Below the pieces are notes generated by a model. The model was not told where the DNA came from. It saw only the letters and a program-made list of their open reading frames with translations, and made no database searches. A program made the translations under genes and the position numbers. Shown here piece by piece: positions 24,507 through 53,582 of a stretch of 64,000 nucleotides of DNA (positions are counted from its first letter, which is position 1; each line of letters starts with the position of its first letter). The stretch lies in the IMG/VR virus record IMGVR_UViG_3300031884_000008. The stretch is one strand, 5' to 3'. This DNA is from a virus (lineage: Duplodnaviria > Heunggongvirae > Uroviricota > Caudoviricetes).

Positions 24507-24523
24507 CATATGGAGAAATTCAT

Positions 24524-25459: not shown

Positions 25460-26544
25460 TTAAAATTAAAAAAATTAAAGTAGAACCAACCGATGTATAT
25501 GACTTATCTGTGCCTGAAACAGAATGTTTCTTTGCTAATAACATATTAGTTCATAACTGCGAGATCCTACTACCTACAAAGTCATTCAAGAGACTAGATG
25601 ATGAGGCCGGCCGAATTGCGCTGTGTACCTTAGGGAGTATTAATTGGGGTGCGTTCCGTAACCCAGAAGATATGCGCCGAGCATGTCGTATTCTACTAAG
25701 AAGTCTGAATAACATTTTGGATTATCAAGACTTCCTTTCTATTCAGTCTAAGTTATCGAATGACGAGATTCGTCCAATCGGTATCGGTGTAACTAATCTC
25801 GCATACTGGCACGCTAAGCGCGGATATAAGTACGGAGACTCAGATGCACTACAGGACGTAAAGAGTTGGGCAGAACACCAGACTTACTACCTCATGGAAG
25901 CAAATGTAGAATTGGCAAAAGAGCGTGGAAAGTGCATTGACTCTGACAAGACCCGCTATGGTCAAGGAATCTTTCCCTGGGAACTTAGAGCCAATGGTGT
26001 AAACGAGCTAGCAGACTTTAATCCTGAGCTTGATTGGGAATCACTACGATTTGAAATGAAAGAGTATGGTGTGCGAAACAGCACAGTTGGTGCCATTGCT
26101 CCGGTTGAATCTTCATCTGTTGCCATTAATTCAACTAATGGTATTGCACTACCAATGAGTTTGATTTCTGTTAAGGAATCAAAAGCGGGATCCTTCGTGC
26201 AAGTTGTCCCAGAATATCATAATATTAAGGTCAGAAAGAATTATCAGTTGATGTGGGATCAGGTTGATTGCGTCGAGTATCTTAAGACCTCTGCTGTTCT
26301 TGCTGCATACATGGATCAATCAATTTCAACTGATACGTTCTATAATCCAGCACATTTCCCTGATCGCAAGATACCAACTACGCTAATTGCTAAAAATTTG
26401 ATGCTAGCACATAAGTTCGGTCTCAAGACGCTTTATTATAGCCTCGTGTGTAAACAAGGTTCTAAAGAAGAAGCCGACGATGCACCTCTTATGCCTATAG
26501 ACTTTTTTGAAGATGAAGATTCCTGCGAGAGTTGTAAGTTATAG
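25456..26544 (+). CDS. nrdA: intein C-terminal half (34 aa, blocks F/G ...ILVHN) fused to NrdA C-terminal fragment
   Basis: VYDLSVPETECFFANNILVHN|CEILLPTK; C-extein resumes with CEI of the SNLC-x-EI active site at ~25558. Confidence 0.75.
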   Translation: MIKIKKIKVEPTDVYDLSVPETECFFANNILVHNCEILLPTKSFKRLDDEAGRIALCTLGSINWGAFRNPEDMRRACRILLRSLNNILDYQDFLSIQSKLSNDEIRPIGIGVTNLAYWHAKRGYKYGDSDALQDVKSWAEHQTYYLMEANVELAKERGKCIDSDKTRYGQGIFPWELRANGVNELADFNPELDWESLRFEMKEYGVRNSTVGAIAPVESSSVAINSTNGIALPMSLISVKESKAGSFVQVVPEYHNIKVRKNYQLMWDQVDCVEYLKTSAVLAAYMDQSISTDTFYNPAHFPDRKIPTTLIAKNLMLAHKFGLKTLYYSLVCKQGSKEEADDAPLMPIDFFEDEDSCESCKL

Positions 26545-35817: not shown

Positions 35818-35958
35818 ATGCCCTGGATGATTAACATTCACAACGACTTCGCGATCTTCGGCGCACTGCTGGGAACCATGCTCGTTGTGATTCTTACCGC
35901 AACACTAATCATTGAATTTGTGTTCAATATTATCAAACAACCTCAATCAAAGGACTAA
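35818..35958 (+). CDS. small single-TM membrane protein (46 aa) immediately upstream of the SPFH gene (NfeD-like partner?)
   Basis: MPWMINIHNDFAIFGALLGTMLVVILTATLIIEFVF; not in ORF track (<60 aa). Confidence 0.3.
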   Translation: MPWMINIHNDFAIFGALLGTMLVVILTATLIIEFVFNIIKQPQSKD

Positions 35959-35965
35959 TCAAACT

Positions 35966-36814
35966 ATGAATAACATTAAGACGGTTCTTATCGTCGGTGC
36001 TGCCGCTGCGGCTCTTGCTGCATGTGGTCAAGTGCAACCCGGATATGTTGGCCTTAAGGTTAATCAATATGGTTCAGGTTCTGGTGTTGACCCTAATGTT
36101 CTAGGTGTCGGTACGTATTTTACCCCAATGGGAACTCAAATTATCGAGTTTCCGGTTTATACTCAGCAATATATCTACACCGCTTCTAAGAATGAAGGCA
36201 AGGCTGTCAACGAAGAATTTACGTTCAATGACAAGCAAGGTCTGAATATGGGTGCCGACATTGCTGTAAGCTATTCGGTTGACTCTAGCAAGGCTCCGGT
36301 TCTTTATCAGAAGTTCCGCTCTACTGCCGAAGGTCTTGTCGAAAATCAAATTCGTAACGAAATTCGTAACGATCTGAACGACATTGCTTCTGCCTATGCG
36401 GTCGATGAAATCTTCGGTCCTAAGAAGAAGGAACTGTTGGATAAGGTGCAGGTTGAAGTCGCTGCTCACTTCAAGCCTTACGGTCTGAACATCGAGCGTC
36501 TGACTTGGGCGAATACTATTCGTATGCCCCAATCGATTCACGATCAAATCAACCAACGTATCGCTAACGAACAGCAAGCTAAGGCTGCTGAGGCTAACGT
36601 GATCACGGTTGAAGCCAATGCTCGCTCTGCGGTTGCTAAGGCTAAGGGTGAAGCTGATGCTAACGCACTGCTTGCTCAATCGATTAAGGCTAGCCCAGAA
36701 CTCGTCAAGCTTCGTGCGATTGAAGCCTGGAAGGAAACTGGTGGTAAGATGCCGACTTATGTTGGCGCTGGGGCTGAAATCCCGATCATCGGCAATCTGA
36801 TGAAGGGTAACTAG
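35966..36814 (+). CDS. SPFH/Band-7 (stomatin/prohibitin-like) lipoprotein
   Basis: Lipobox AALAAC|GQ; SPFH core GYVGLKVNQYG... Confidence 0.65.
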   Translation: MNNIKTVLIVGAAAAALAACGQVQPGYVGLKVNQYGSGSGVDPNVLGVGTYFTPMGTQIIEFPVYTQQYIYTASKNEGKAVNEEFTFNDKQGLNMGADIAVSYSVDSSKAPVLYQKFRSTAEGLVENQIRNEIRNDLNDIASAYAVDEIFGPKKKELLDKVQVEVAAHFKPYGLNIERLTWANTIRMPQSIHDQINQRIANEQQAKAAEANVITVEANARSAVAKAKGEADANALLAQSIKASPELVKLRAIEAWKETGGKMPTYVGAGAEIPIIGNLMKGN

Positions 36815-36815
36815 T

Positions 36816-37100
36816 ATGGCCCGCATGCTATCGATGATTATCGGGCTTGCTTCTATCGTGGCGCTAGCGGGGTGTAATAAACCCGCTAGCGGTTCGTTTG
36901 TTCAGCAAGGCTCTGATACATCAAGCGATCCTTCAATCCCTGCTGATTACAAGCTAGCTAATCCATGCCCACCAGGAGTTCCTTCGGTTTACTTGCGCCC
37001 GGACGGGTCTTACGTGGTCAAGAACTCAGAAGATCATGATAACTTTATTGTGATCGCTCAGACACCAGAAGATTTCTGTAAGTCTTTCCAAAAGAACTAG
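36816..37100 (+). CDS. small lipoprotein
   Basis: MARMLSMIIGLASIVALAGC lipobox. Confidence 0.45.
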   Translation: MARMLSMIIGLASIVALAGCNKPASGSFVQQGSDTSSDPSIPADYKLANPCPPGVPSVYLRPDGSYVVKNSEDHDNFIVIAQTPEDFCKSFQKN

Positions 37101-37164
37101 TTATACATAATATGTGCTAAATACTTGACAATAAGAGGATTATTGCCATTTAGGACATAAAAAA

Positions 37165-40100
37165 ATGAAGCACGCGAAGGCTATTTTACTAGCAGTTACC
37201 GCTATAGTTTCCACACTCACACTCACAGCTTGCTTTACATCTAGACAACAAACTGCAAACGCAGAAAATATTCCAAACAATCCTGACTACAATTGGGACG
37301 TTCGTCCGATTTTGTCACAAAATTGCTTTGCTTGTCACGGGCAAGGAACACAGAAGGCTGGTCTACGGTTAGACATACAAAAAGCCGCTTACGATTCCAT
37401 ACCAGAAGACAAAACCAAACACGCTTTTGTTCCGGGTAATCCTAGTAAAAGCGAGGCATTTAAACGCATTACTTCGACTGATGCAGACTACAGAATGCCA
37501 CCTAAAGATTCTCATAAAACCCTGTCTGCACATGAAATCGCAATTATAAAGCGATGGATTGAACAAGGTGCTCACTATAAACAACACTGGGCATACATAA
37601 CACCGACAGTAGTAAAGCCAGAAAGAACTAAATGGGACAAGCAAGCTGTCAACGCCATTGATCGATATATCTATGCCAAATTAGCTACAGAAGGGTTATC
37701 TCCTTCTGCGGAAGCGGACAAAGAAACGCTTATAAATCGTGTTTATCTAGACCTAACTGGACTTCCTCCCTCGCTTCAAGAAGTAGATGCATTTATCAAT
37801 GACACCTCTCCTAATGCTTACGAGAAGATAGTAGATCATCTTTTATCATCTACCGAGTATGCAGAACGCCAAACAAATATTTGGATGGATGTTGCTCGGT
37901 ATGCAGACAGCCGCGGAGGACTAAATGACGGGGAACGAGGAATCAGTTTCCCGTATCGTGATTGGGTCATCAATGCGTTTAAACGCAACATGCCTTATGA
38001 TGAGTTTGTGACCTGGCAGCTTGCCGGCGATAAACTTAATAATGGTCATCCGACTCGTGAGCAATTACTTGCAAGTGCCTTCCTTAAAGAAGGTCGTCAA
38101 GATTCAGAGGGCGGATCAATTGATGAAGAATTTAGAACTAATTATGTCCAAGAAAGAACAGAATTAATAGGTAAAGACTTTTTGGGTCTAACCGTTGGGT
38201 GCGCCAAATGCCACAATCACAAATATGATGTGATTGCCCAATCAGATTACTATTCATTAGCTGGATTCTTTAATCAGATGGACGAGCGAGGACAAGGATC
38301 CGGTTCTCGTGGTACACCCGGCGGCGCCACAATCGAATGGCCGACTCCGCTGCAATCAAAAAGACTTGAGGCCGCCCATGCAATTACAGTAGCTAAAGAA
38401 CAAGCTTATCAAGTTGCTTTACAATCTGCGCAGATCAATAAAATAGCATTAGACACAAACCGAACAACATTTATACAATCATCTATTCAAGCAGACACAC
38501 AAGCCTATTATCCATTAGATGCAGGGTACAAAGATTCATTTGATGAACTGTACCTAGATCCGCAACCAACGGCACCTGGTGAACCTCTACCTAATCAAAA
38601 AAATAACTTTCCCGGATTAACTGCGGCTCAAGTTACTGCCATATTACAAAATAAAATTCTTGCAGATGTAAAGGTCGGTAAACCAACTCCTAGTATGACA
38701 CCTAAAGATGATTCTATGTCTCCTAAAACCATCAAGTCTTCAGATATAAAGGACCCTAAAAAAGCACCCCTTCGCCGCTCACGATTCGGCGGTATGGACG
38801 GAGACATTGCTGCAATGAAGGCGGACCCTAATCTTCCGAGAATAGCTTCTCATGAAATCGATTGGGCTATGGAACAGCTTGTAGCATCCGGATTTACTGA
38901 TGATCGTTTAGGAGACCCACAACGTATCATGAAACGTCAACTTCCACAATGGATTCATGAAGATTCACTGTTGTGGACAGATGCAGGGATTCAGGGTGAA
39001 AAGCGTGGATTTGTAAGTAATGTAAAGTTTGTTTCCGGTCACAAGGGACAGGGAATTCAACTAAAAGATTCAGTTTTTGCTGCGGACAAAAGTGTAGGTA
39101 TGTTTGAAAGAACTCAACCATACACATTAGATTTTTGGTTGAAGCTTCCAAAGAAACCATATTACGACAATACTCGTCCATTAGGACCGTCTGCATCTAT
39201 AATTTATAACAACGGCGGCATTGAAGGGCTTGGTTATGAATTAACCATGTCTAATAATAAAATGGCATATTCTATTACTCACCAAGCTCCAACCGACATG
39301 CTTAGAATTTCTACGATTCAAGATGTTCCCACAGGTCGTTGGGTTCATATAACTTCTACTTATGACGGTAACTCCAAAGCGGCTGGTATGCATCTATATT
39401 TTGATGGTGTAGAACAAAAAGCTCAAATTGATCATGACCACTTAACACGTAGCGCATTTCCGCGCGGCGGAAACAGTCAGTTTGTGAGTTATTTTGGGTT
39501 GTCTGCTGGAGTTAACTTTAATAGACCGGAATTAGTAGACGGCGCCATTGATGAGCTACGTGTGATTACACGGGCATTGACTCCTACGGAAATTACTTAT
39601 CTGCAGGATCCTGCACTACTTAAACAAGTTCCGGCACAGCAAGCAATATCTGATATGAAGTTAATTATGGCTGAACTGGATCCTGCGGTTCAACGAGCCT
39701 GGCAAGAGATGACAGATGCACGACTTGCTGAACAACGCATAGAAACTCCGATCTATCGTGTCATGGTTGCAGGAGATCAGGCTATTCCTCGTAAAAACTT
39801 CGTGTTAGATCGTGGGGTCTATAACAGCTATCTACAAGAAGTAAAACCTCAGGCACCGAACCGAGTATTTGCATGGAACGAAACTTTACCTAGAGACCGT
39901 TTGGGACTAACTGAATGGATGTTTGATCCGAAAAATCCGCTCGTTGCTAGGGTTTATGTAAACCGCATATGGCAAAATCATTTCGGTACTGGTATAGTTC
40001 AAACGGTAGATGATTTTGGTACACAAGGAACTAATCCAACTCATTCGGAACTACTTGATTACCTAGCCGTAGAGTTTATTAGGTCTGGTTGGGATATAAA

Positions 40101-40836
40101 GCACATACAAAAACTAATAGTTATGTCTGCAACTTATCGTCAAAATTCTAATATTACGCATGACGCATTAGAAAAAGATCCACGAAATTTTCTTCTAGAA
40201 CGAGGACCACGTTTTAGAATGCCAGCAGAAGTTATTCGTGATAATGCATTAGCTGCCTCTGGTCTGTTACTTAAGAAAGTGGGCGGAGATGCAGTATTCC
40301 CATATGCTCCAGATGCAATTTGGGATGGTGTAGCGCAAGGTGCGGTTATTTATCCTACAAATGAACCGGATGATCAAATGCACAGACGATCTATGTATAC
40401 CTATATAAAGCGGAACTCACCAGTAGCCAACTTAGTACCGTTTGACATGCCAGATCGCTACAATGCACAAGTTCTACGTCCAGTGTCAACTACACCTCTG
40501 CAATCATTGGTTATGTTGAATGACGTTCAATTTATGGAAGCTTATCGTAAGCTATCTGAAAGAGCAATCAAGTCTTCTGCAAATCAAGATCAACAACTGA
40601 TAACGATGTTCCGTTTGGCTGTTCGGCGCCATCCAAATGATAATGAACTATCAGTATTGAGGAAATATCGTGTTGCTGAAATTAGCAGAATGCAGAATTC
40701 CCCTGATGAAGTAAAAAAGATACTTTCTATGGGGGTTTCTCCTACCGATACTTCGATTGATCCGGCCCAACTCGCAGCAATGACTATGGTCACTGCAAGC
40801 GTCATGAATACCCCAGACGCATATACTTTGCACTAA
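37165..40836 (+). CDS. PSCyt1 (planctomycete cytochrome c) - DUF1549/PSCyt2 - LamG-like - DUF1553/PSD1 multidomain lipoprotein
   Basis: Lipobox LTAC; DVRPILSQNCFACHGQGTQKAGLRLD (PSCyt1 CxxCH); LDLTGLPPSLQEVDAFI...WMDVARYADS...PYDEFVTWQLAGD (DUF1549); TTPLQSLVMLNDVQFMEAYRKLSER (DUF1553). Confidence 0.7.
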   Translation: MKHAKAILLAVTAIVSTLTLTACFTSRQQTANAENIPNNPDYNWDVRPILSQNCFACHGQGTQKAGLRLDIQKAAYDSIPEDKTKHAFVPGNPSKSEAFKRITSTDADYRMPPKDSHKTLSAHEIAIIKRWIEQGAHYKQHWAYITPTVVKPERTKWDKQAVNAIDRYIYAKLATEGLSPSAEADKETLINRVYLDLTGLPPSLQEVDAFINDTSPNAYEKIVDHLLSSTEYAERQTNIWMDVARYADSRGGLNDGERGISFPYRDWVINAFKRNMPYDEFVTWQLAGDKLNNGHPTREQLLASAFLKEGRQDSEGGSIDEEFRTNYVQERTELIGKDFLGLTVGCAKCHNHKYDVIAQSDYYSLAGFFNQMDERGQGSGSRGTPGGATIEWPTPLQSKRLEAAHAITVAKEQAYQVALQSAQINKIALDTNRTTFIQSSIQADTQAYYPLDAGYKDSFDELYLDPQPTAPGEPLPNQKNNFPGLTAAQVTAILQNKILADVKVGKPTPSMTPKDDSMSPKTIKSSDIKDPKKAPLRRSRFGGMDGDIAAMKADPNLPRIASHEIDWAMEQLVASGFTDDRLGDPQRIMKRQLPQWIHEDSLLWTDAGIQGEKRGFVSNVKFVSGHKGQGIQLKDSVFAADKSVGMFERTQPYTLDFWLKLPKKPYYDNTRPLGPSASIIYNNGGIEGLGYELTMSNNKMAYSITHQAPTDMLRISTIQDVPTGRWVHITSTYDGNSKAAGMHLYFDGVEQKAQIDHDHLTRSAFPRGGNSQFVSYFGLSAGVNFNRPELVDGAIDELRVITRALTPTEITYLQDPALLKQVPAQQAISDMKLIMAELDPAVQRAWQEMTDARLAEQRIETPIYRVMVAGDQAIPRKNFVLDRGVYNSYLQEVKPQAPNRVFAWNETLPRDRLGLTEWMFDPKNPLVARVYVNRIWQNHFGTGIVQTVDDFGTQGTNPTHSELLDYLAVEFIRSGWDIKHIQKLIVMSATYRQNSNITHDALEKDPRNFLLERGPRFRMPAEVIRDNALAASGLLLKKVGGDAVFPYAPDAIWDGVAQGAVIYPTNEPDDQMHRRSMYTYIKRNSPVANLVPFDMPDRYNAQVLRPVSTTPLQSLVMLNDVQFMEAYRKLSERAIKSSANQDQQLITMFRLAVRRHPNDNELSVLRKYRVAEISRMQNSPDEVKKILSMGVSPTDTSIDPAQLAAMTMVTASVMNTPDAYTLH

Positions 40837-40847
40837 GAGGAATAAAC

Positions 40848-42311
40848 ATGAATAATGATCCAAATGAATTAATAAATTTTGCCCGCCGGTCACTTTTAGG
40901 CACGAGTATGGGATTGGGTGTGATAGCCGGCGCCGAATTATTAGGTGCTACCAAATCACAAGCAGCCAGTGCTGCACCTTCCAGCGAGACTGGCCCAGAT
41001 TTAGGTAAGTTAACTACAGGTCAATTTCCAGCAAGAGCAAAGCGTGTAATTGACATTCACATGAAAGGAGCAGTATCCCAAATTGATACTTTTGATTATA
41101 AGCCAGAAGTTATCAAGCGCCATGGGCAAGAAATTCCACCTTCTGTAAAGGGTCATGGCAAAATATCATCAATGTCTAATGGACAAACTTCTTTCCCTCT
41201 TATGGGTCCTATTGCTCCATATAAACAATATGGTCAATGTGGTCGTTGGGTTTCAGACCTAATGCCACATATAGGGTCTATATCAGATGATCTAACCTTC
41301 ATTCATTCTATATGGACTCCCCAAGTTAATCACGATCCAGCAGACATTCTCATGCATACTGGGTTTCAATTAGCGGGCCGCCCTGCCGCTGGAGCATGGG
41401 TTAATTATGCATTAGGGACTGATAACTCTAATCTCCCTTCATATGTAGTCATGAAATCTCAGTTCCAATCAGCAGGGGTTGGCGCTACTCAGGCTACTTG
41501 GTCAGCAGGATTTTTGCCCTCTAATCACCAAGGTGTTGAATTTCGTTCTGGTAATTCTCCTGTTCTTTATGTAAGCAATCCAGATGGCATTAGTCGTGAA
41601 GAACGAAGAAGTCAAATTGATCTTATCGGTGAATTATCGCGCTATCAGTATCAGACGACCGATGACCCAGAAGTCTTAGCCAAAATTGCTCAATATGAAA
41701 TGGCATATCGTATGCAAGATTCTGTACCTGAGGTAACTGATCTATCTGATGAACCACAATATATACTCGATATGTATGGTCCTCAGGTTCATCAACCAGG
41801 TAGCTTTGCTCGCAATTGCCTATTAACACGTCGTCTTATTGAACGCGGTGTTAAGTATGTCAACCTAATTCAAGTTGGATGGGATCACCATAATGGTATT
41901 GCCCGCCGACATCCTAGTGACTGTTGGGCAGTAGATCAGCCATCTGCTGCTTTGGTGACGGATTTAAAGCAGCGAGGACTTCTAGATGATACTCTTGTAA
42001 CTTGGAAGGGTGAATTCGGTAGAACTGTATACGCGCAAGGAGGAATAAATCCAAACTGCGGGCGTGACCATCACGGAGGAAACTTTACGATGTGGATGGC
42101 CGGAGGCGGAACAAAACCTGGCATCGAATACGGCAAATCAGATGATTTCTCTTATAATGTTGTGGAAAATCCAGTAGAAGTTCACGATTTAAATGCTACT
42201 GTGTTATATCTTTTAGGAATTGATCACAAACAACTTACATACCATTATCAAGGTAGAGATTTCCGTTTAACTGATACTGCAGGTAAAGTAGTTCAAGGAA
42301 TAATTGCTTAA
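40848..42311 (+). CDS. DUF1501 (sulfatase-like) protein with Tat signal, canonical partner of DUF1549/DUF1553 proteins
   Basis: RRSLLG twin-arginine motif; DIHMKGAVSQIDTFDYKPE...GRDHHGGNFTMWMAGGG. Confidence 0.7.
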   Translation: MNNDPNELINFARRSLLGTSMGLGVIAGAELLGATKSQAASAAPSSETGPDLGKLTTGQFPARAKRVIDIHMKGAVSQIDTFDYKPEVIKRHGQEIPPSVKGHGKISSMSNGQTSFPLMGPIAPYKQYGQCGRWVSDLMPHIGSISDDLTFIHSIWTPQVNHDPADILMHTGFQLAGRPAAGAWVNYALGTDNSNLPSYVVMKSQFQSAGVGATQATWSAGFLPSNHQGVEFRSGNSPVLYVSNPDGISREERRSQIDLIGELSRYQYQTTDDPEVLAKIAQYEMAYRMQDSVPEVTDLSDEPQYILDMYGPQVHQPGSFARNCLLTRRLIERGVKYVNLIQVGWDHHNGIARRHPSDCWAVDQPSAALVTDLKQRGLLDDTLVTWKGEFGRTVYAQGGINPNCGRDHHGGNFTMWMAGGGTKPGIEYGKSDDFSYNVVENPVEVHDLNATVLYLLGIDHKQLTYHYQGRDFRLTDTAGKVVQGIIA

Positions 42312-42369
42312 GGCTTGACATTCAGCGTATATTATCGTATTATTCGTTACATAAGAGTTATGCGCGCCT

Positions 42370-42450
42370 GAGGCTGAATGGTTTCACAAGAGTCTCTAAA
42401 GCTCAAGATTGCAGGTTCAAATCCTGTCGGGCCCGCCACTCTTAAAATAT
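42370..42450 (+). pseudogene. tRNA 3'-half remnant (T-arm/acceptor ...GCAGGTTCAAATCCTGTCGGGCCCGCCA) without matching 5' half
   Basis: Canonical T-loop and CCA end seen but no complementary acceptor 5' strand upstream. Confidence 0.35.
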
Positions 42451-42487: not shown

Positions 42488-42793
42488 ATGGACATGATCA
42501 CACAAGAACTGAAATCGCTGCACGAGGAATTCACTTCCCGTGTTTTTCAACTGCGTCTGGTTGACGGTGTTCGACGTGATTGGGCAGTTTCTTGGGCTCT
42601 GCTGCAAGATCAAAGTCCCGACTATGCCGAATGCTATGTTCCTCCGATCTTTCCGATTAAAGGACAAGACCTGCTGGAAACTGGTATGAAGCCTGGCAAG
42701 GAAGTTGGTCAACGGCTGCAAGTCATGCGTGATGCTTGGGTTAAATCTCGTTTTACTATGACTAAGGAAGACCTGCTGTCCCATAATAATTGA
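42488..42793 (+). pseudogene. C-terminal remnant of a CCA-adding tRNA nucleotidyltransferase
   Basis: PIKGQDLLETGMKPGKEVGQRLQVMRDAWVKSRFTMTKEDLL resembles the CCA-enzyme C-terminal tail; only ~100 aa; GC ~48%, above neighbours. Confidence 0.4.
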
Positions 42794-42843: not shown

Positions 42844-43377
42844 ATGAGTGCTGACCTTCCTACGCTAGTCCCTAGCGTAGTCTTTAAGACTCGGGTTCGT
42901 GACGATAGTATCGAAGGACCCAATCCATATCGCTGGCAAGAAGTAACTTCATTTGACTATTTCGCAGGAAAGCGAGTTGTGCTATTTGCGCTGCCTGGAG
43001 CATTTACCCCTACTTGCTCTACTTACCAACTTCCGGGTTTTGAAAATAACTATCAACAATTTAAGGATTTGGGTATTGACGAAATCTACTGCTTGTCAGT
43101 GAACGATTCGTTCGTCATGAACAAGTGGGCTCAAGACCAAAATCTAAAGAACGTTAAGGTTATTCCGGATGGTTCTGGTGAATTCACTAGCAAGATGAAC
43201 ATGCTTGTTGCTAAGGATAATTTGGGTTTCGGTGTTCGTTCTTGGCGATATGCGGTAATCGTTGACAATGGACGCATTGAAAAGTGGTTTATTGAACCTG
43301 GCATCGAACACAATTGCGATACGGATCCCTACGGTGAATCTTCACCTGAAAACATCCTCGTATATCTGAAAAACTAA
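42844..43377 (+). CDS. peroxiredoxin (Prx5-like, AhpC/TSA family)
   Basis: VLFALPGAFTPTCS peroxidatic Cys motif; AGGAG RBS. Confidence 0.7.
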   Translation: MSADLPTLVPSVVFKTRVRDDSIEGPNPYRWQEVTSFDYFAGKRVVLFALPGAFTPTCSTYQLPGFENNYQQFKDLGIDEIYCLSVNDSFVMNKWAQDQNLKNVKVIPDGSGEFTSKMNMLVAKDNLGFGVRSWRYAVIVDNGRIEKWFIEPGIEHNCDTDPYGESSPENILVYLKN

Positions 43378-47519: not shown

Positions 47520-47593
47520 TGTCCCTTCGTCTAATGGTAAGACATCCGTTTTTGGTGCGGATTATCGAGGTTCGAGTCCTTGGGGGACAGCCA
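47520..47593 (+). tRNA. tRNA-Gln(UUG)
   Basis: Cloverleaf by eye; anticodon loop TTTTGGT; CCA encoded; TATAAATA 13 nt upstream. Confidence 0.7.
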
Positions 47594-47637
47594 AATTATA
47601 TGCCGTGTTAGCTCATACAACATACCTATTAATAGGC

Positions 47638-47644
47638 ATAAATA
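47638..47644 (+). promoter_or_regulatory. late-promoter-like ATAAATA box
   Basis: gcATAAATAactgagctaggacaaagcttATG. Confidence 0.4.
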
Positions 47645-47664
47645 ACTGAGCTAGGACAAAGCTT

Positions 47665-48162
47665 ATGCACGTATGTCACTGCGGTAAAGAGTTTGAAACG
47701 TTCCGTCAATTGAATGGACATAAAAGTGTTCATCGGGAAGGCGGAAGATACTCTATTAGTAGAGGTAGAGCCCGAACAAATATACCTTCGTGTTTGAAAT
47801 GCGAGAAACAATGTGGCGTCAAGCAAAAGTTTTGTTCTAATAAATGTCAAGCAGAATACCAGTCTGCTGAAAAAATTAAAAATTGGTTGATAACCGGTGC
47901 ATTTGATAGCATGGGTTTTCCGGCATGGGCGCGCCGAACTTTAATAGCGTTGCATGGAGCCAAATGTCAGTGGTGTAAATTAGAGCAATGGAACGATCTC
48001 CCAATCACACTAGAATGTGATCATTCAGATGGTAATCCTAATAACAATCATATAGATAATTTAAGGTTGCTTTGTCCAAACTGTCATAGTCAAACTGATT
48101 CCTTTAAAGGAAAAAACAGGGGAAATGGTCGAACGCACCGGTACAAAAATAAGCCGACGTAG
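47665..48162 (+). CDS. HNH endonuclease with N-terminal C2H2-like zinc finger (paralog of 55811)
   Basis: CHCGKEFETFRQLNGHKSVH; ITLECDHSDGNPNNNHIDNLRLLCPNCH; stop overlaps tRNA-Thr start. Confidence 0.65.
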   Translation: MHVCHCGKEFETFRQLNGHKSVHREGGRYSISRGRARTNIPSCLKCEKQCGVKQKFCSNKCQAEYQSAEKIKNWLITGAFDSMGFPAWARRTLIALHGAKCQWCKLEQWNDLPITLECDHSDGNPNNNHIDNLRLLCPNCHSQTDSFKGKNRGNGRTHRYKNKPT

Positions 48163-48227
48163 CACAGTGGTAGTGCGCAGTCTTGGTAAGACTGAGGTCA
48201 AGGGTTCAATCCCCTTCGTCGGCACCA
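48153..48227 (+). tRNA. tRNA-Thr(GGU)
   Basis: Anticodon loop TTGGTAA; CCA encoded. Confidence 0.75.
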
Positions 48228-48233
48228 TATTAC

Positions 48234-48310
48234 GGATCCTTAGCTCAGCGGACTAGAGCATCGCGCTTCGGACGCGAGGGTCGGCAGTTCAAATCTGTCA
48301 GGATTCGCCA
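48234..48310 (+). tRNA. tRNA-Arg(UCG)
   Basis: Anticodon loop CTTCGGA. Confidence 0.75.
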
Positions 48311-48330
48311 AATATAGCATATTAAAGTAT

Positions 48331-48408
48331 GCAGTCATAGCTCAACGGATGAGAGCATCAGACTACGAATCTGAGGGTTGGGGGTTCGAATCCCTCTGAT
48401 TGCGCCAT
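48331..48408 (+). tRNA. tRNA-Arg(ACG)
   Basis: Anticodon loop CTACGAA. Confidence 0.7.
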
Positions 48409-48418
48409 TTATAGTATT

Positions 48419-48530
48419 GGTCCTAGGTGGTTTTCCTTGGTGGGAAAGGGTGTGACGTTCGAATCGTCTCTATAGGACTTGGGTGCCCCAAAAGCGGTTT
48501 GATTCCGCTAGCCAATACGACTTTATCATG
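48419..48530 (+). ncRNA. tRNA-like element(s) with T-arms (GACGTTCGAATCGTC; AGCGGTTTGATTCCGCT) that do not fold into one canonical cloverleaf
   Basis: Two T-loop consensus segments, stem-triloop TTGGG-TGC-CCCAA; acceptor pairing imperfect. Confidence 0.25.
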
Positions 48531-48549
48531 CGCACTTCGTACAATAGTA

Positions 48550-48622
48550 GTACCGCTGTCTCCAAAGCAGCAGACGTGGGTTCGATTCCAATTAGACCCA
48601 CCAAATTGCGCATTGCACACCA
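48550..48622 (+). pseudogene. degenerate tRNA-Trp(CCA)-like copy (good D and anticodon arms, disrupted T-stem/acceptor)
   Basis: GTACAATAGTAGTAC D-arm; GCTGT-CTCCAAA-GCAGC anticodon arm; T-stem 3' strand does not pair. Confidence 0.3.
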
Positions 48623-48690
48623 AAGTTTATGCCCCGACTATCAACTCACTTAGGTGATTATATAATTAGGATTGAGGGCCACCATAATAC

Positions 48691-48777
48691 GGAGTGGGTA
48701 AGCAGATAGGATCTGTCTTCGCTTGGAAAGCGAAAGGTACCTTACGGGTATAGAGTTCGAATCTCTAACGCTCCGCC
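48691..48777 (+). tRNA. tRNA-Ser(GGA), class II
   Basis: Anticodon loop TTGGAAA; long variable arm. Confidence 0.7.
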
Positions 48778-48931
48778 ATAAGTTTATGCCCCTATCACGT
48801 ATGTTTGGTATCCAACACCGAAAGTAATCGAGAGAAAGATAGAGTAGGGGCGACAGTTTATCGTCAGGTCCCGCAGCGGTAGCAGTTTACTAGTGACTGC
48901 CGGAGAGAAAATTTCCTGACGGCCAAATTAT

Positions 48932-49020
48932 CAGGGTATAGCTCAGCCAGGTCGGAGCGCTCGTTTTGGAAACGAGAGGCGGAATCGTTCACGCAGGTTC
49001 GAATCCTGCTACCCTGACCA
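48932..49020 (+). tRNA. class-II (16-nt variable arm) tRNA with anticodon UGG (Pro), discriminator A73
   Basis: CTCGT-TTTGGAA-ACGAG perfect anticodon arm; var arm AGGCGGAATCGTTCAC; perfect T-arm and acceptor. Confidence 0.5.
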
Positions 49021-49029
49021 TTTAACTAC

Positions 49030-49121
49030 GGAGAGTTGACCGAGCGGCCGAAGGTGGCGGTCTCGAAAACCGACGTACTTAGAAATAAGTACCGGGGGTT
49101 CAAATCCCTCACTCTCCGCCA
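49030..49121 (+). tRNA. tRNA-Ser(CGA), class II
   Basis: Near-identical in architecture to E. coli tRNA-Ser(CGA): GGTCTCGAAAACC. Confidence 0.7.
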
Positions 49122-49129
49122 AATTTAAT

Positions 49130-49203
49130 TGAGGGTTCGTCTAATAGTAGGATATTTGACTCTGAATCAGAAGATCCAGGTGCGAGTCCTGGCCCCTCAT
49201 CCA
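49130..49203 (+). tRNA. tRNA-Gln(CUG)-like
   Basis: TTTGA-CTCTGAA-TCAGA anticodon arm; good T-arm; weak D-stem. Confidence 0.45.
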
Positions 49204-49221
49204 ACATACCAGCGAGGAAAT

Positions 49222-49605
49222 ATGAAACTGAAAATGTACTGCATCTTCGCTAAAGAAAGCGTAGACAAGATGAAAGGTAATCGCGGAAAGCTTGCTTCTA
49301 TGGCAGGTCACGCATACCTTCATGCTTATTGGAATGCAGTTAGTCTTGAGGTTTCTTCGGACTGCAATCTTCAAGCAATCCAGTACAAGAACAGTGATCA
49401 TGCGTATAAGATCACTCTTATTGTTGACACGGTAGCCGAACTAGAAGTGATTCAAGAGGCATACAAGAATGTATGCGGTGTCTCGTTAGTTAAAGACGCT
49501 GGGTTCACGGTATTCAACGAACCGACTGTTACTTGTTTAGGACTCGGTCCTATTCGAGAAGACTTGATCGGTGAAGATTTGAAAGCCTTGAAGCTATTCA
49601 TGTAG
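49222..49605 (+). CDS. peptidyl-tRNA hydrolase, PTH2 family
   Basis: MKGNRGKLASMAGHAYLHAY matches PTH2 GKGK-AAQ-xHA motif; C-terminal GLGPI...LKLF; embedded in the tRNA array. Confidence 0.5.
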   Translation: MKLKMYCIFAKESVDKMKGNRGKLASMAGHAYLHAYWNAVSLEVSSDCNLQAIQYKNSDHAYKITLIVDTVAELEVIQEAYKNVCGVSLVKDAGFTVFNEPTVTCLGLGPIREDLIGEDLKALKLFM

Positions 49606-49751
49606 AGAGGATACTCTCGTTGGTACCCTGCACAATGGTTCTGACGAGGAAGGGTAGTGTGCAGCTACCCGAGAGATTATGGGGACGTAAGTGGGCTTAA
49701 CGCCGGGCTGGCAGTTCAGCAGGGAGGGTTCGATTCCCTCCGTCTCCACCA
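49606..49751 (+). ncRNA. structured RNA candidate: 5' nested-helix domain plus tRNA-like 3' module (acceptor GGGGACG/CGTCTCC, T-arm, ACCA)
   Basis: CTCTCG...CGAGAG and CTGCACA...TGTGCAG helices; ...GGGAGGGTTCGATTCCCTCCGTCTCCACCA 3' end. Confidence 0.35.
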
Positions 49752-50068
49752 AAATAACTCGGCGGGTGAAGAACACCGTAAGTCCGCAGAATTCATGTTG
49801 CTCTAGTGTAGATGGTCTGCACGCGAGACCGAAAATCTCGAGGTTTCGGATCATTACCGAAGGGCAACACCATTTATGTCTCCTCAGGTTCATAGCGTGC
49901 TAAAGGCGTCAAGTCGCCGGGAGACACCATTTTTACTGTAGGTGATTATTGCAAGCCCTGCAGAATGAGATATACGGTTGAGGAGAAACTAGGCAGCACA
50001 ATACTGCTATTAGTAAGCTTTTAAGGGGGTGACGGTCTCTAAAAATGAGGAACCCCAGTAAGTTTTAT

Positions 50069-50153
50069 GCGAGTATGGCGGAATTGGTAGACGCACTGGT
50101 TTTAGGTACCAGCGCCGAAAGGCGTGGGGGTTCGACTCCCTCTACTCGCACCA
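50069..50153 (+). tRNA. tRNA-Leu(UAG), class II
   Basis: Anticodon loop TTTAGGT. Confidence 0.75.
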
Positions 50154-50199
50154 ATATATAATGCCCCGATGGTGGAATTGTCCAGGGTATAAATGATGT

Positions 50200-50283
50200 G
50201 GGGGCGTGGCGGAATGGTCTACGCGGCTGTCTCAAAAGCAGCTTCCGAAAGGATTGGGGGTTCGACTCCCTCCGCCCCTACCA
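50200..50283 (+). tRNA. tRNA-Leu(CAA), class II
   Basis: Anticodon loop CTCAAAA. Confidence 0.75.
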
Positions 50284-50289
50284 AATTAG

Positions 50290-50853
50290 TTACATACCGG
50301 CTTCTGCTTTAAGTGCATCAAGCTGTCTATCGTAATCTTTAGCCCAACCCAAAATAGTCTGTTTTAGTCGAGAGAACACATCTCCTACAGCTTCTTTGAT
50401 TGGCTTTACTGACATTGCAGGACTTTTTTGAGTCACTGTAACCATTTGCTTTTTAAGCCCCTCTAACACTACGATCAATTCAGGTGTTAGATGCTTCTCT
50501 AATTCAGTTAAAATATCTTTGTACTTTGGAGTTCTAGTTTCTTCCGGATCCTTAGTCAACGTAAAGATAAAGCTAAGAGTCTCAACAACTCTAGTGCGAA
50601 CGGCATCTTCTGCGTCAAACAAATCACTCACATTTTCTTTAGCTTCATCCTTTACGGCAGCTTTAAGATATTTGACTTCTGATTCCAATTCATCAATTCT
50701 TGCAAGTTTTTGTGCAAGCTTTGTATATATTTGGCTATTATAGCTCTTAAGTCTAGCAATGACCTTTTTACCGTTAGGTTCGTCCTCGTACTCCAAATTA
50801 GGATTACGTGCTTCAAATAGGTTAAGTAGTTTACGAAAATCTGTAGTGTCCAT
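50290..50853 (-). CDS. hypothetical protein
   Basis: ORF 50290..50934; likely start MDTTDF; two ATAAATA boxes and a 16-bp direct repeat upstream. Confidence 0.4.
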   Translation of the reverse strand: MDTTDFRKLLNLFEARNPNLEYEDEPNGKKVIARLKSYNSQIYTKLAQKLARIDELESEVKYLKAAVKDEAKENVSDLFDAEDAVRTRVVETLSFIFTLTKDPEETRTPKYKDILTELEKHLTPELIVVLEGLKKQMVTVTQKSPAMSVKPIKEAVGDVFSRLKQTILGWAKDYDRQLDALKAEAGM

Positions 50854-50914
50854 ATTCATATTTATCATTATATTCATATTTATCATTAGATAAATAATAT
50901 GGGAGGATACTCTT

Positions 50915-51298
50915 ATGAAAAAATTACTATGCATCGCTGTGCTTGCGTTAGCAGCATGTACGCCAAATTCAAGTTCACAAGTTGGCGCTGATGGTTATAC
51001 TTTTAAACAAAAGCAGTACGAGAAGCACGAAGTTACGATTAAGATAGTTACATATAAATCACCTTCGGAATTAAACCGAGTAGTAGCAGGGTATCTCAAT
51101 AAGAGTACTACGGCATCAGATCATAAAGTAAATTCTACTAACGTAGTAGCATTTAGCCTGCTGCAACCTCCTAGTTATGATACATGCACAATTCACATGA
51201 TGGATCCTAGCGTGACTTACCAACCAGAGTTTGTTGGTCACGAATTTATCCATTGTATATACGGACAGTTTCACGGCGACAACACAGTAAATAACTAA
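50915..51298 (+). CDS. small lipoprotein with HExxHxxGxxH (metzincin-type) zinc-binding motif
   Basis: Lipobox LALAAC; HEFIHCIYGQFH; ATAAATA + GGGAGGA RBS upstream. Confidence 0.45.
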   Translation: MKKLLCIAVLALAACTPNSSSQVGADGYTFKQKQYEKHEVTIKIVTYKSPSELNRVVAGYLNKSTTASDHKVNSTNVVAFSLLQPPSYDTCTIHMMDPSVTYQPEFVGHEFIHCIYGQFHGDNTVNN

Positions 51299-51299
51299 C

Positions 51300-51374
51300 G
51301 CCCTATTAGCTAAGAGGTATAGCAGCGCTTTCGTAAAGCGAAGGTCGGCAGTTCGATTCTGTCATGGGGCACCA
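51300..51374 (+). tRNA. tRNA-Thr(CGU)
   Basis: Anticodon loop TTCGTAA. Confidence 0.55.
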
Positions 51375-51429
51375 AAAAATCTAAGTGTTTAGGTTGCGAC
51401 ATGTTAAATACATTCGGAGAAAATTTCGC

Positions 51430-51867
51430 ATGTATACTGTTTATAGAATTACTAATTTGGTTAACAGCAAAACCTATATAGGAGTTCATAAGACCAACAA
51501 GCCAATGGATTCGTATTACGGGAGCGGAACTGCAATAAAAAACGCAATTTCAAAATATGGAAAAGAAAATTTTCGAAAGGAAATTCTTTTAATATCCGAA
51601 ACCCGAACGGAAGCATATGATTTAGAACGAAAGCTAACCGAAAACTTTAACGAACATTCAAATTATAATATGAGATTGGGCGGAGTGGGAGGGTTTACCA
51701 AAGAGAGCGCCCTTAAGGGCGCTCTGGCAAGGATAGAAAAAACAACAGTAGAAGAACGCAGTCTTCTGGCCAAAAAAGCTTATTTAGAGTACGTCAGCAG
51801 AATGACGGAGGAAGAATATAGTTCCTATACGAACGCCATGCGAGAAAGAGCTAAAAAGGCGGGTTAG
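51430..51867 (+). CDS. GIY-YIG homing endonuclease
   Basis: YTVYRITNLVNSKTYIGVHKT...YYGSG. Confidence 0.6.
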   Translation: MYTVYRITNLVNSKTYIGVHKTNKPMDSYYGSGTAIKNAISKYGKENFRKEILLISETRTEAYDLERKLTENFNEHSNYNMRLGGVGGFTKESALKGALARIEKTTVEERSLLAKKAYLEYVSRMTEEEYSSYTNAMRERAKKAG

Positions 51868-52107
51868 CGAATAAAGGTAAACCAAAAAATACGGATTCAG
51901 TTGAACACCAAGAAGCCAACAGAAAAAGATCATTAGCCTCTAAAAACAAAGTCAGAATAACTAACGGAGTGATTAACAAATCAATTTCGCCATTGGACGA
52001 AATTCCTATAGGATATAGAAAAGGTCTAACTCGTCGCAACCATAAAGAAAATAAAAAACCCGGTTGACAATTTTTTTATATCTGTTATGATAAAATTAAA
52101 GAAATAT

Positions 52108-52184
52108 GCCCGTATAGCTCAGTGGTCAGTAGCGCAGGTCTCATAAACCTGGGGTCCTAGGTTCAAATCCTAGTGCGGGCACCA
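52108..52184 (+). tRNA. tRNA with CAU anticodon (Met or, more likely given adjacent TilS, Ile2/lysidine)
   Basis: CAGGT-CTCATAA-ACCTG anticodon arm; G1:C72 paired so not an initiator. Confidence 0.7.
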
Positions 52185-52203
52185 TCATCTAAGAGGTACT
52201 CAA

Positions 52204-52881
52204 ATGTCAGTTGCATGGAAAAAGATTCAACAAGAATTAGTGAATCTGTATTCGCAAGATCGTAGAGAAATCCTGCTGATGGTATCAGGAGGACCCGACA
52301 GTATGTTCATGCTAGATTTCTGCAATAATGCAGGCATCGGTTTTACTGTCTGTCATTTTCAGCACGGTATTCGAGACAACGATTATCTCGACAAGGAACT
52401 CATTCAGCAGTTTATTCAGGATAAACAGATTCAATGTAACTTTGTCGTTGGTTACGGAAAGGATCTCAAAGATTCTTCCAACCTTGAAGCAGAGGCCCGC
52501 AGTCAGCGTTGGGAGTTTGTGCGTAACTACAGAAAAACTCTTGGTAAAGAGGTTGTAGCGGTAACTGCACACCACCTCAATGACAATATCGAACAAGTGT
52601 TTTTGGACCTGATGCGGGGCGCCGCTCATTCGAATCTTGGACTTGCTAAGTTTAGATTTGACGAAAGCCTAGAATTTTTTAAATGCAAACCATTTCTTAC
52701 GGTTCCGAAGTCTGTTATTTTAGAACAGTGCAATCGGCGCGGTATCCCCTTCATTGATGATATCACTAATCAAGACAATCACCATGAAAGAAATTGGTTG
52801 AGAAATGAAATCATTCCACAACTGATGAGTCGTAGAAATCTAGAGAAATCTATGCTCAATGCGTTAATTCACAACTATTGA
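52204..52881 (+). CDS. tilS: tRNA(Ile)-lysidine synthetase-like PP-loop ATPase
   Basis: LLMVSGGPDSMFMLDF (SGGxDS PP-loop); VTAHHLNDNIEQVFLDLMRGA; gene starts 20 nt after the tRNA(CAU). Confidence 0.55.
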   Translation: MSVAWKKIQQELVNLYSQDRREILLMVSGGPDSMFMLDFCNNAGIGFTVCHFQHGIRDNDYLDKELIQQFIQDKQIQCNFVVGYGKDLKDSSNLEAEARSQRWEFVRNYRKTLGKEVVAVTAHHLNDNIEQVFLDLMRGAAHSNLGLAKFRFDESLEFFKCKPFLTVPKSVILEQCNRRGIPFIDDITNQDNHHERNWLRNEIIPQLMSRRNLEKSMLNALIHNY

Positions 52882-52894
52882 AAGATAAAATACA

Positions 52895-53119
52895 ATGACT
52901 AAGAAGACCGCGCTTGAAAAGGATTTGGACAAGCATACAAAGCTGTACGTGTCGCATACAGTCGAAGAAATGAAGCGATTGAGGCATTGGTTTGCCGGTT
53001 TTTCTGCTGCTGGCGGAAAGCTTCCGGCATGTGAACAAAGTTTTAGTGCCTGCCAAAAGGCACAAGTTATTCTTGACGACTATCTGGCCCTTATGGAAAA
53101 ATACGGACCTAAATCCTAA
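52895..53119 (+). CDS. hypothetical protein
   Basis: 74-aa ORF. Confidence 0.3.
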   Translation: MTKKTALEKDLDKHTKLYVSHTVEEMKRLRHWFAGFSAAGGKLPACEQSFSACQKAQVILDDYLALMEKYGPKS

Positions 53120-53127
53120 ATAAAATA

Positions 53128-53203
53128 TGCCTAGGTGGCGGAATTGGTATAGCAGCGCTTTCGTAAAGCGAAGGCCGGCAGTTCAATCCTGTTCTAGGCA
53201 CCA
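53128..53203 (+). pseudogene. tRNA-Thr(CGU)-like duplicate with diverged 5' half (poor D-stem)
   Basis: 3' 55 nt near-identical to tRNA at 51300. Confidence 0.35.
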
Positions 53204-53270
53204 AATACGATTTACCTATAGAAAAATAATTACCTAAATTAGGTACTTAAATAGTATATAGGAGAAACTC

Positions 53271-53573: not shown

Positions 53574-53582
53574 GGAGCAGTT

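Follow-up and report, generated by a model that had tools for sequence, protein, structure and literature searches.

The window analyzed here is a 64,000-nucleotide stretch of viral DNA (Caudoviricetes; IMG/VR record IMGVR_UViG_3300031884_000008), and our study concerns a pair of adjacent genes within it, A and B, which encode a large lipoprotein with cytochrome domains and a DUF1501 protein with a twin-arginine translocation (Tat) signal. The pair is a clean, lineage-specific insertion into the genome of a jumbo myovirus, and we propose that this envelope module of two genes came from a host and has been retained by the phage as a functioning auxiliary gene set. Taken together, a real insertion into a phage, a donor of the Caulobacteraceae type and a function maintained by selection are probable.

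Architecture of the two proteins

The two genes and their parts, all on the plus strand, are as follows (Pfam scores in bits, with the cut-off of each model).

37165..40836, +, gene A: 1223-residue lipoprotein with PSCyt1, PSCyt2/DUF1549, Laminin_G_3 and PSD1/DUF1553 domains
37219..37230, +, lipobox L-T-A-C, residues 19-22, closing the signal peptide of A
37324..37509, +, PSCyt1 c-type cytochrome domain, residues 54-115 of A (56.7 bits, cut-off 22)
37324-37338, +, CFACH motif (CxxCH) of PSCyt1, residues 54-58 of A
37657..38283, +, PSCyt2/DUF1549 domain, residues 165-373 of A (264.2 bits, cut-off 29.8)
38200-38214, +, CAKCH, the second CxxCH of A, within PSCyt2, residues 346-350
39100..39594, +, Laminin_G_3 (LamG), a concanavalin-like jelly-roll, residues 646-810 of A (61.7 bits, cut-off 27.6)
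39895..40668, +, PSD1/DUF1553 domain, residues 911-1168 of A (299.1 bits, cut-off 28.5)
40837..40847, +, spacer between A and B, 11 nt, GAGGAATAAAC, including GAGG
40848..42311, +, gene B: 487-residue DUF1501 protein with a twin-arginine signal and a predicted alkaline-phosphatase-superfamily fold
40884-40901, +, RRSLLG of the Tat signal of B (FARRSLLG is residues 11-18)
41037-42305, +, DUF1501 domain of B (491.1 bits, cut-off 27; profile positions 1-390 of 390)

Both open reading frames (ORFs) have the coordinates given by an earlier reading made from the DNA letters alone (the sequence-only reading), which had described A as a lipoprotein with the order PSCyt1-DUF1549-LamG-DUF1553 and a CxxCH motif, and B as its DUF1501 partner with an RRSLLG twin-arginine signal. 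Both descriptions hold. The four Pfam matches in A (PSCyt1, PF07635; PSCyt2, PF07583; Laminin_G_3, PF13385; PSD1, PF07587) lie far above their cut-offs, and A qualifies as a planctomycete cytochrome, with all three PSCyt and PSD models above their gathering scores in the order PSCyt1-PSCyt2-PSD1. Its N-terminus, MKHAKAILLAVTAIVSTLTLTAC, reads as a signal peptide ending in the lipobox LTAC, in keeping with the pattern by which we define a lipoprotein (a signal peptide with a terminal lipobox [LVI][ASTVI][GAS]C); the bacterial orthologues have LVAC at this position. Both CxxCH motifs and the MPP methionine, the axial Met of PSCyt1, are invariant across 40 homologues, and heme binding is predicted. 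The protein is 60-140 residues shorter than its nearest orthologues, and the deletions are confined to a Gly/Pro-rich linker. An AlphaFold2 model of A has an overall predicted local distance difference test (pLDDT) score of 68, rising to 80-95 in the LamG region, which matches lectin-like jelly-rolls in a fold search at E 1e-8 (toxin Hc-N domains and the carbohydrate-binding domain of an arabinanase). Solved relatives were found by this search for LamG only; DUF1549 and DUF1553, modeled with low-to-moderate confidence, gave none.

Gene B starts with MNNDPNELINFARRSLLG, and its Tat signal stretch, FARRSLLGTSMGLGVIAGAELLG, consists of a twin-arginine followed by a hydrophobic stretch, from which export is predicted. 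Arg13 and Arg14 are invariant across 51 homologues, and the DUF1501 match (PF07394) is full-length. In a Foldseek search with the AlphaFold model of B (pLDDT 72), all 81 Protein Data Bank (PDB) chains at E<=1e-3 belong to the alkaline-phosphatase superfamily, the best being sulfatases, LtaS, phosphonate-monoester hydrolases and alkaline phosphatase (probability 1.0, E 4e-6 to 1e-4). Two conserved Asp/His clusters of B, WDHH and GRDHH, appear to resemble the metal sites of this superfamily. The formylglycine-sulfatase signature, searched for as [CS]xPxR and [CS]x[PA]xR, occurs nowhere in B, so 'sulfatase' is the wrong name for it; of the earlier term 'sulfatase-fold', the superfamily assignment stands as a model-based prediction and the sulfatase identity does not. 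Sequence searches of the PDB with A and with B gave no significant match, and NCBIfam holds no model matching either protein.

The pair is an insertion in a jumbo phage genome

The window is a genuine jumbo myovirus, at most distantly T4-like. It encodes a tail sheath of 1220 amino acids (phrog_10581, E 1.5e-209) and a tail tube protein, so that the pair indeed lies in a phage genome bearing virion genes, as had been claimed. A class I ribonucleotide reductase, a non-specific endonuclease and a RimK-type ATP-grasp protein are also encoded; the capsid, portal and terminase genes lie outside this window. The nearest cultured relatives of the sheath are the jumbo phages Phosso, Atu_ph07, PA5oct and SCTP-2 (40-47% identity over ~56% of the protein), and its C-terminal region matches 2,602 phage records, including, more distantly, Escherichia T4-type phages and cyanophages. 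The earlier label 'T4-like' is overstated: the sheath is homologous to T4-type sheaths, but the best matches are non-T4 jumbo phages at ~46% identity over 56% of the protein. Relatives in IMG/VR, among them the 360,683-bp IMGVR_UViG_3300032675_000001, carry nrdB, a 975-residue gene, the endonuclease, a peroxiredoxin and RimK in collinear order at 59-89% amino acid identity. Neither this syntenic relative nor the four cultured jumbo phages have A or B.

The features that flank the pair are listed below, followed by the gene orders of the window and of its relatives (loci L092 to L098).

35912..36814, +, SPFH/Band_7 lipoprotein, lipobox LAAC, left flank (Pfam Band_7 1.7e-25; phrog_200 1.4e-64)
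36816..37100, +, 94-residue lipoprotein (lipo94), lipobox LAGC, left flank (tblastn 63% to L092)
37101..37164, +, upstream spacer of the inserted segment, 64 nt, with a TTGACA hexamer at 37125-37130 that lacks a good -10 and AGGA 10 nt 5' of the ATG
42315..42343, +, strong sigma-70-like promoter match, TTGACA-17-TATTAT, 11/12, just 3' of the B stop codon and ahead of the tRNA
42364..42435, +, tRNA with a CTA (amber-suppressor) anticodon, right flank (Rfam tRNA 34.6 bits)
42488..42793, +, remnant of a CCA-adding enzyme gene (cca), right flank, with ~30 N-terminal and ~77 C-terminal residues of the 382-residue L092 orthologue
42844..43377, +, Prx5-type peroxiredoxin (Prx), cytoplasmic (PGAFTPTC), right flank; phage backbone, 77-85% identical in relatives
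Window: g35326 – SPFH – lipo94 – A – B – tRNA – Δcca – Prx
L092: SPFH – lipo94 – orf – cca (382 aa)
L095/L096: g35326 – tRNA – Prx
L098: g35326 – SPFH – tRNA – Prx

Both boundaries of the insertion can be read from these relatives. On the left, DNA homology with L092 (window 35994-37094 to L092 10053-11151 by blastn) stops at 37094, six bases 5' of the lipo94 stop codon; on the right, homology with L094 and L095 resumes at 42345-42364. The inserted segment therefore spans about 37101-42344 (5.2 kb), and its coding content is A and B only. The pair is missing from four syntenic relatives (L094, L095/L096, L097 and L098), which read endonuclease-(SPFH)-tRNA-Prx-RimK. The SPFH gene belongs to the phage backbone, being found in L092 (81%), L098 and L097, and the tRNA(CTA) is kept directly upstream of the peroxiredoxin gene in the pair-less L094, L095 and L098; ARAGORN calls it in L098 (3794-3868) and L095 (8160-8234) but not in the window copy. 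In the cca remnant, the catalytic PolyA_pol head domain has been deleted in frame. A bacterial origin, phage flanks on one contig, empty sites in relatives and a phage-like composition together characterize A and B as auxiliary genes, and the pair belongs with a known kind, the host-derived auxiliary genes of jumbo phages.

Upstream of A, a sigma-70 scan found no promoter. The sequence GCTAAATAC at 37116-37124 is one mismatch away from GATAAATA, a motif enriched in this phage, and stands at an atypical distance; any regulatory assignment of this region is weak. Two ideas suggested by the right flank were rejected. The peroxiredoxin is not a TlpA/CcmG-like periplasmic helper in the heme maturation of A, being of the Prx5 type, without a signal peptide and present in relatives that lack A and B. 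Recoding of TAG, raised by the tRNA(CTA), does not fit either: TAG ends 12 of 56 ORFs and both A and B stop at TAA, so the gene calls hold and there is no wholesale recoding.

Composition, continuity and selection

The GC content of the pair is 0.421, no different from that of the whole window (0.416) and in accord with the ~41% reported before. GC at third codon positions (GC3) is 0.30 in A and 0.27 in B, compared with 0.74-0.94 in the bacterial orthologues and 0.25-0.31 in the phage structural genes. Relative synonymous codon usage of the pair follows that of the phage core genes (r = +0.78) and not that of the orthologues (r = -0.5), and its tetranucleotide usage agrees with the remainder of the window (r = 0.88; window mean 0.83) but not with the bacterial orthologues (r about -0.4). 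The sequence-only reading had named a GC or k-mer discontinuity as a sign of misassembly. We looked for one and found no break, composition being continuous across the segment and the flanks syntenic with IMG/VR phages. With both ORFs intact, GC3 at 0.27-0.30 and phage k-mer usage, the copy is intact and compositionally ameliorated, as had been supposed. The amelioration is complete and textbook-clean, GC3 having moved from ~0.9 to ~0.28 while amino acid identity was kept at 85-91% in B and 73-81% in A.

A separate contig of 6,371 bp, present in two samples, encodes an identical A protein and has the order small ORFs, A, 487-residue DUF1501, peroxiredoxin; support for the junctions from outside the window's contig consists of this single 6.4-kb contig, compared by gene order and by the A protein. 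An exact-match search of the JGI metagenomes for the left junction gave no match. The pair is not an assembly chimera.

Selection has left a clear record in both proteins. Gene B keeps the family-wide residue at all 113 conserved columns (a column counting as conserved at >=97% in 86 family members from many phyla), and A does so at 355 of 360, one of its five mismatches being an artefact of signal-peptide trimming. Nonsynonymous divergence (dN) of B from its orthologues, at 0.065-0.106, does not exceed that among the bacterial orthologues themselves (0.079-0.103), and Tajima's relative-rate test is not significant (23 versus 15 unique changes). Synonymous differences are saturated (pS about 1, NG86), so dS is not computable and no dN/dS figure is given. 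Conversion of the synonymous sites together with retention of the conserved residues indicates long residence under purifying selection and not a chimera, and the loss of the catalytic domain from the neighboring cca gene, while A and B stayed intact, argues that the pair is maintained by selection.

These data bear on whether the segment might be an artefact or a passenger, that is, a mis-assembled bacterial fragment or a very recent, functionless acquisition heading to decay. Gene flux in the flanks, where cca is a remnant and SPFH and lipo94 vary among relatives, would fit such an origin, as would the failure to recover the phage's contig from the JGI metagenome collection. We nevertheless judge it very improbable: a bacterial fragment of the clade to which the pair belongs would have 64-72% GC, whereas the segment, at 42% GC, follows the phage in its codons and tetranucleotides; the same junctions recur on the separate contig from two samples; both ORFs are intact with their conserved residues; and complete amelioration implies that the insert has been resident for long, in which time 5 kb free of selection would have decayed like cca.

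The donor was probably a Caulobacteraceae-type bacterium

The closest homologues of the pair, 85-91% identical for B and 73-81% for A, lie on contigs of 64-68% GC, several of them labelled Caulobacteraceae. Homologues number dozens for B at 80-91% identity and extend over 66-81% for A, and on each of the contigs examined (64-68% GC) their neighbors are ordinary bacterial genes (thiG/thiS, aroQ-accB-accC, MarR, acyl-CoA dehydrogenase, TonB receptors). All relatives of A at >=55% identity in the JGI metagenomes lie in DNA of 65-72% GC, and a protein-based scan of this collection returned only such high-GC bacterial relatives, without the phage's own contig. Among 185,579 species representatives (one genome each), the best match to B is a Caulobacteraceae metagenome-assembled genome at 81%; other Proteobacteria follow at 58-68%, and Planctomycetota, Verrucomicrobiota, Bacteroidota and Acidobacteriota at 48-53%.

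In 98 of 100 bootstraps of a neighbor-joining tree of 87 B sequences, the clade that holds the window copy takes in every Caulobacteraceae-labelled sequence and excludes all other named taxa; the nearest neighbor of the window copy is P0001, a fragment of 64% GC (78 of 100). A nested position of window B inside the labelled clade was considered and withdrawn, as the most recent common ancestor of the three Caulobacteraceae-labelled sequences includes the window in 40 of 100 replicates. In the same replicates the group descended from this ancestor is always free of other taxa, and in some of them the window and P0001 together lie just outside.

The window pair and the Caulobacteraceae version are true orthologues. 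The 11-nt spacer between A and B is identical in length in the closest bacterial loci, L005 and L091, which points to the capture of the pair as one operon. The donor was thus probably a Caulobacteraceae-type alphaproteobacterium, from which a jumbo myovirus lineage took the pair as an operon. More widely, the bacterial two-gene loci described previously (Kamneva et al. 2012, PMC3542564; He et al. 2017, PMC5615132) share with the window the domain order PSCyt1-PSCyt2-(Laminin_G_3)-PSD1 plus DUF1501, including the Laminin_G_3 variant, as well as the adjacency and orientation of the genes, the CxxCH motifs, and N-terminal signals of the same kinds, Tat in the DUF1501 protein and a signal peptide in its cytochrome-domain partner. 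What sets the window pair apart is that it is phage-borne, has phage codon usage and a shorter A, and lacks the genes for a PSCyt1-LRR protein and a TonB receptor.

The sequence-only reading had taken the pair for a signature of the Planctomycetes-Verrucomicrobia-Chlamydiae (PVC) superphylum and a hint of a PVC host. These Pfam families were originally described from Rhodopirellula, and it is in PVC genomes that they have expanded most (PMC3542564); the module has been held to be essentially PVC-born (PMC3542564, PMC5615132). A different lineage of the module that resides in phages, represented by L117 and related contigs (discussed below), also has Verrucomicrobiota as its nearest named bacteria, at ~50-54% identity. 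For the window copy, a PVC origin marking a PVC host is nonetheless scarcely credible. Its B protein is 48-53% identical to PVC homologues as opposed to 81-91% to Caulobacteraceae-labelled proteins, every PVC sequence falls outside its clade in 98 of 100 bootstraps, and the family is common outside PVC, with rich clades in Bacteroidota, Acidobacteriota and Proteobacteria.

From a Caulobacteraceae-type donor it follows that the host is likely a Caulobacteraceae relative and not a PVC bacterium. The jumbo phages PA5oct and Atu_ph07 have a GC content much below that of their hosts, so a host GC far above that of the phage would not be unusual for this group. Caulobacteraceae thus become a specific host candidate for a lineage of uncultivated jumbo phages, and the idea of the module as a PVC marker is corrected.

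A model for the function of the pair

The module has been described in bacteria as membrane-targeted, possibly redox-active, sometimes tied to carbohydrate-binding domains and of unknown function (PMC3542564, PMC5615132). Tat export, lipidation, heme motifs, the predicted fold of B, the LamG domain and the frequent neighborhood of a TonB receptor lead us to read the pair as a two-component processing step in the periplasm. In this model, A would be exported by Sec, lipidated and supplied with heme by the host Ccm system, to become periplasmic and membrane-tethered, while B would fold with a metal cofactor in the cytoplasm and then pass through Tat. The two proteins would act as they do in the bacterium, most likely in the periplasmic processing of an imported organic substrate. 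In this step B would be a metal-dependent enzyme of the alkaline-phosphatase superfamily, hydrolyzing or transferring esters, and A its ligand-binding, redox-active partner. The phage copy would sustain or boost this host capacity as host expression falls during a long jumbo-phage infection. We hold the specific biochemical mechanism of A and B to be doubtful, more so than the origin and maintenance of the pair.

Several points weigh against the proposal of a Caulobacteraceae-derived, working auxiliary module. The placement of the window copy within the Caulobacteraceae clade is unstable, and we claim clade membership alone (98 of 100 bootstraps); the Caulobacteraceae labels derive from metagenome bins rather than isolates; and the donor of a gene need not be the present host of the phage. 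Upstream of A, the promoter-like motif that is enriched in this phage is represented by no more than a weak variant. The model confidence is moderate for both proteins (pLDDT 72 for B, 68 for A), and although S1 sulfatases, LtaS and phosphonate-monoester hydrolases are the nearest folds to the model of B, with Asp/His clusters reminiscent of their metal sites, the match is distant: at a TM-score of ~0.3 and ~10% identity, without the formylglycine motif and with no significant sequence match to a solved structure, B is unlike the S1 sulfatases. Bacterial loci often continue with a PSCyt1-LRR (leucine-rich repeat) protein and then a TonB-dependent receptor, both absent from the window, and if these are needed the phage copy would rely on host partners. 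The biochemical role of any member of the family is, moreover, still listed as unknown (PMC3542564, PMC5615132), which leaves the substrate-processing step as an inference.

The lipoproteins of this region also allow for a different role, in envelope remodelling or superinfection exclusion. Here A, possibly with the two neighboring small lipoproteins, would occupy or alter an outer-membrane component and block the adsorption of other phages, the likely target being the TonB-dependent receptor that partners the module in bacteria. Phage T5 offers an analogue in its lipoprotein Llp, which blocks the receptor FhuA, and TonB-dependent receptors often serve as phage receptors. Three lipoprotein genes (SPFH, the 94-residue protein and A) run into the gene for a Tat-exported protein, the bacterial orthologues often adjoin such a receptor, and the phage has retained A and B but not the receptor, all of which would fit exclusion. 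Blocking would, however, require neither the enzyme B nor the retention of 113 of 113 conserved residues in B, both heme motifs and 355 of 360 conserved columns in A. Neofunctionalization is usually accompanied by accelerated protein evolution, none of which is seen here, and unrelated phages keep the same A+B pairing. We therefore consider exclusion unlikely.

The proposed auxiliary module may also be compared with those auxiliary metabolic genes of large phages that act outside the cytoplasm or in nutrient acquisition, such as pstS and phoA of cyanophages. By analogy, the pair is likewise host-derived, set amid phage genes, ameliorated and under purifying selection, and may plausibly support host physiology. 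It differs from genes of the pstS/phoA type in being a two-gene operon of 5 kb whose products, a heme lipoprotein and a Tat substrate, both depend on the host's machinery for maturation and export; phages do not usually carry such cargo.

Few gene families of unknown function have expanded as much in Planctomycetes, Verrucomicrobia and many other environmental bacteria as the PSCyt/DUF1553-DUF1501 module. Its intact retention in large phages, under strong purifying selection, suggests that A and B by themselves make up a self-sufficient unit that matters for fitness and can operate while the expression of the cell's own genes is being switched off. The phage version is compact, having a shorter A and lacking accessory genes, and so offers a good entry point for biochemistry and heterologous expression.

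Related modules in other phages

The sequence-only reading had called the pair unexpected in a phage. This is true of cultured phages, as no homologue of A or B was found in 50,697 GenBank phage records; it is less so of uncultivated ones, for an alignment-based scan of IMG/VR with B recovered 27 contigs, several of them phage, with distantly related DUF1501 genes at 28-48% identity. A literature search found no report of phage-borne PSCyt/DUF1553-DUF1501 modules; the one mention of DUF1501, in Pseudomonas phages, is a weak CDD hit to a 61-residue protein and is irrelevant here. Exact-peptide scans of IMG/VR, which gave no match for A or B, had first suggested that the pair was unique, and the alignment-based scan with B overturned this. 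The corresponding scan with A confirmed nothing, yet local tblastn gave A-like partners in the loci recovered with B.

Many of the 27 contigs have an adjacent PSCyt/PSD1 partner and extra DUF1501 paralogues. All of the DUF1501 loci carry Tat motifs or signal peptides, and their GC3 matches the low-GC contigs on which they lie. One or two PSCyt/PSD1 + DUF1501 pairs, extra DUF1501 paralogues and export signals were observed in L104, L105, L111, L116, L117, L129 and L130. As in the window, the modules of L117/L111, L104/L105/L116, L129 and L130 place a Tat-type DUF1501 gene next to a PSCyt/PSD1 gene with a signal peptide and two CxxCH motifs, and they are flanked by phage genes such as those for PhoH, phrog_11903, ThyA, ribonucleotide reductase (RNR) and a baseplate protein. 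Unlike the window pair, to which they are 28-48% identical, they mostly lack LamG and often have two or three DUF1501 paralogues.

In L117, a contig of 119 kb, the module lies between PhoH, phrog_7964/5070 and phrog_11903, the last being the same PHROG as the window ORF at 1413-2660; in L105 its neighbors are an AAA_5 + DUF2201 pair, UvdE and ThyA. The DUF1501 protein of L117 has graded relatives at 58-75% identity on phage-like contigs, some from Tara Oceans, with the named bacteria (Verrucomicrobiota) more distant at ~50-54%. Two of these relatives, L129 and L130, were inspected, and L130 carries genes for RNR, dCMP deaminase, a baseplate protein and a Band_7 protein. The Band_7 gene of the unrelated L130 is close to its DUF1501 module, and an SPFH/Band_7 lipoprotein gene likewise lies upstream of A in the window. 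Weak tblastn matches had hinted at a kinship of backbone between the window and these loci, which was rejected, as the matches are mostly generic or mobile domains (TnsA-like, HNH, PP-loop); the sole phage-specific family they share is phrog_11903.

At identities of 28-48% and with Verrucomicrobiota as the nearest named bacteria, these modules are independent of the window copy. By sequence comparison there is thus at least one phage-resident lineage apart from the Caulobacteraceae-derived copy, and large phages appear to have taken up the module more than once. A broader reading, which we advance tentatively, is that PSCyt/DUF1549/DUF1553 + DUF1501 may form a widespread and unrecognized class of phage auxiliary genes, captured independently from different phyla and periplasmic during infection. 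One capture would then be from Caulobacteraceae, in the window, and a second lineage, nearest to Verrucomicrobiota, would have been inherited among phages. If this is true, the genes would release, for example, phosphate, sulfate or carbon from imported organic esters in the host periplasm, and the repeated retention of just two genes would define the minimal functional unit of the module.

A different arrangement was seen in L102 and L103, IMG/VR contigs of 91 and 162 kb (locus 9995-19406), which are phage-like by their GroEL (phrog_5725) and ThyA genes and have a lone Tat-type DUF1501 gene. The DUF1501 gene there adjoins those for an Endonuclease_NS protein, a cohesin-domain protein and an outer-membrane protein like a TonB-dependent receptor, which is unusual phage cargo.

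Other features of the window

The motif GATAAATA occurs 17 times in the window against 4.6 expected, a count reached in none of 100 shuffles. Most copies lie 14-35 nt 5' of start codons, those of structural genes included (for example at 3403, 10023, 13694, 16943, 26575, 50889, 53556 and 56348). The late promoter of T4 is TATAAATA, which GATAAATA resembles, and judging by its sequence and position the motif is probably a late-promoter-like element of the phage.

An array of 28 tRNA genes, covering most amino acids, extends over 47520-62393; between these genes lie small ORFs and genes for an HNH endonuclease (53583-54146) and a PP-loop ATPase (52204-52881). So large a tRNA array is a trait in common with the related jumbo myoviruses. 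The nrdA gene is fractured (22835-26544): an N-terminal part of NrdA with an intein N-splicing piece (22835-24490) is separated from an intein C-piece with the C-terminal part of NrdA (25456-26544) by a free-standing homing endonuclease gene (24524-25459, phrog_655). The arrangement resembles a split intein that has an endonuclease gene of its own.

The tail genes have peculiarities of their own. An ORF of 1520 residues with a tail-fiber-like C-terminal region (17511-22073) is the sole strong tetranucleotide outlier of the window (r = 0.50 against a mean of 0.83) and may be repetitive or of different origin. A TnsA-like endonuclease ORF (12273-12707; PF08722, 2e-21) lies within the tail gene module and is probably a mobile or homing element. 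In the same module, a 207-residue ORF (13729-14352) stops at TAG, and an 837-residue ORF (14356-16869) follows in frame one codon later. Given the phage's amber suppressor tRNA, these two are a candidate for a programmed read-through fusion, which may have its counterpart in the tail-chaperone pairs that other phages produce by frameshifting.

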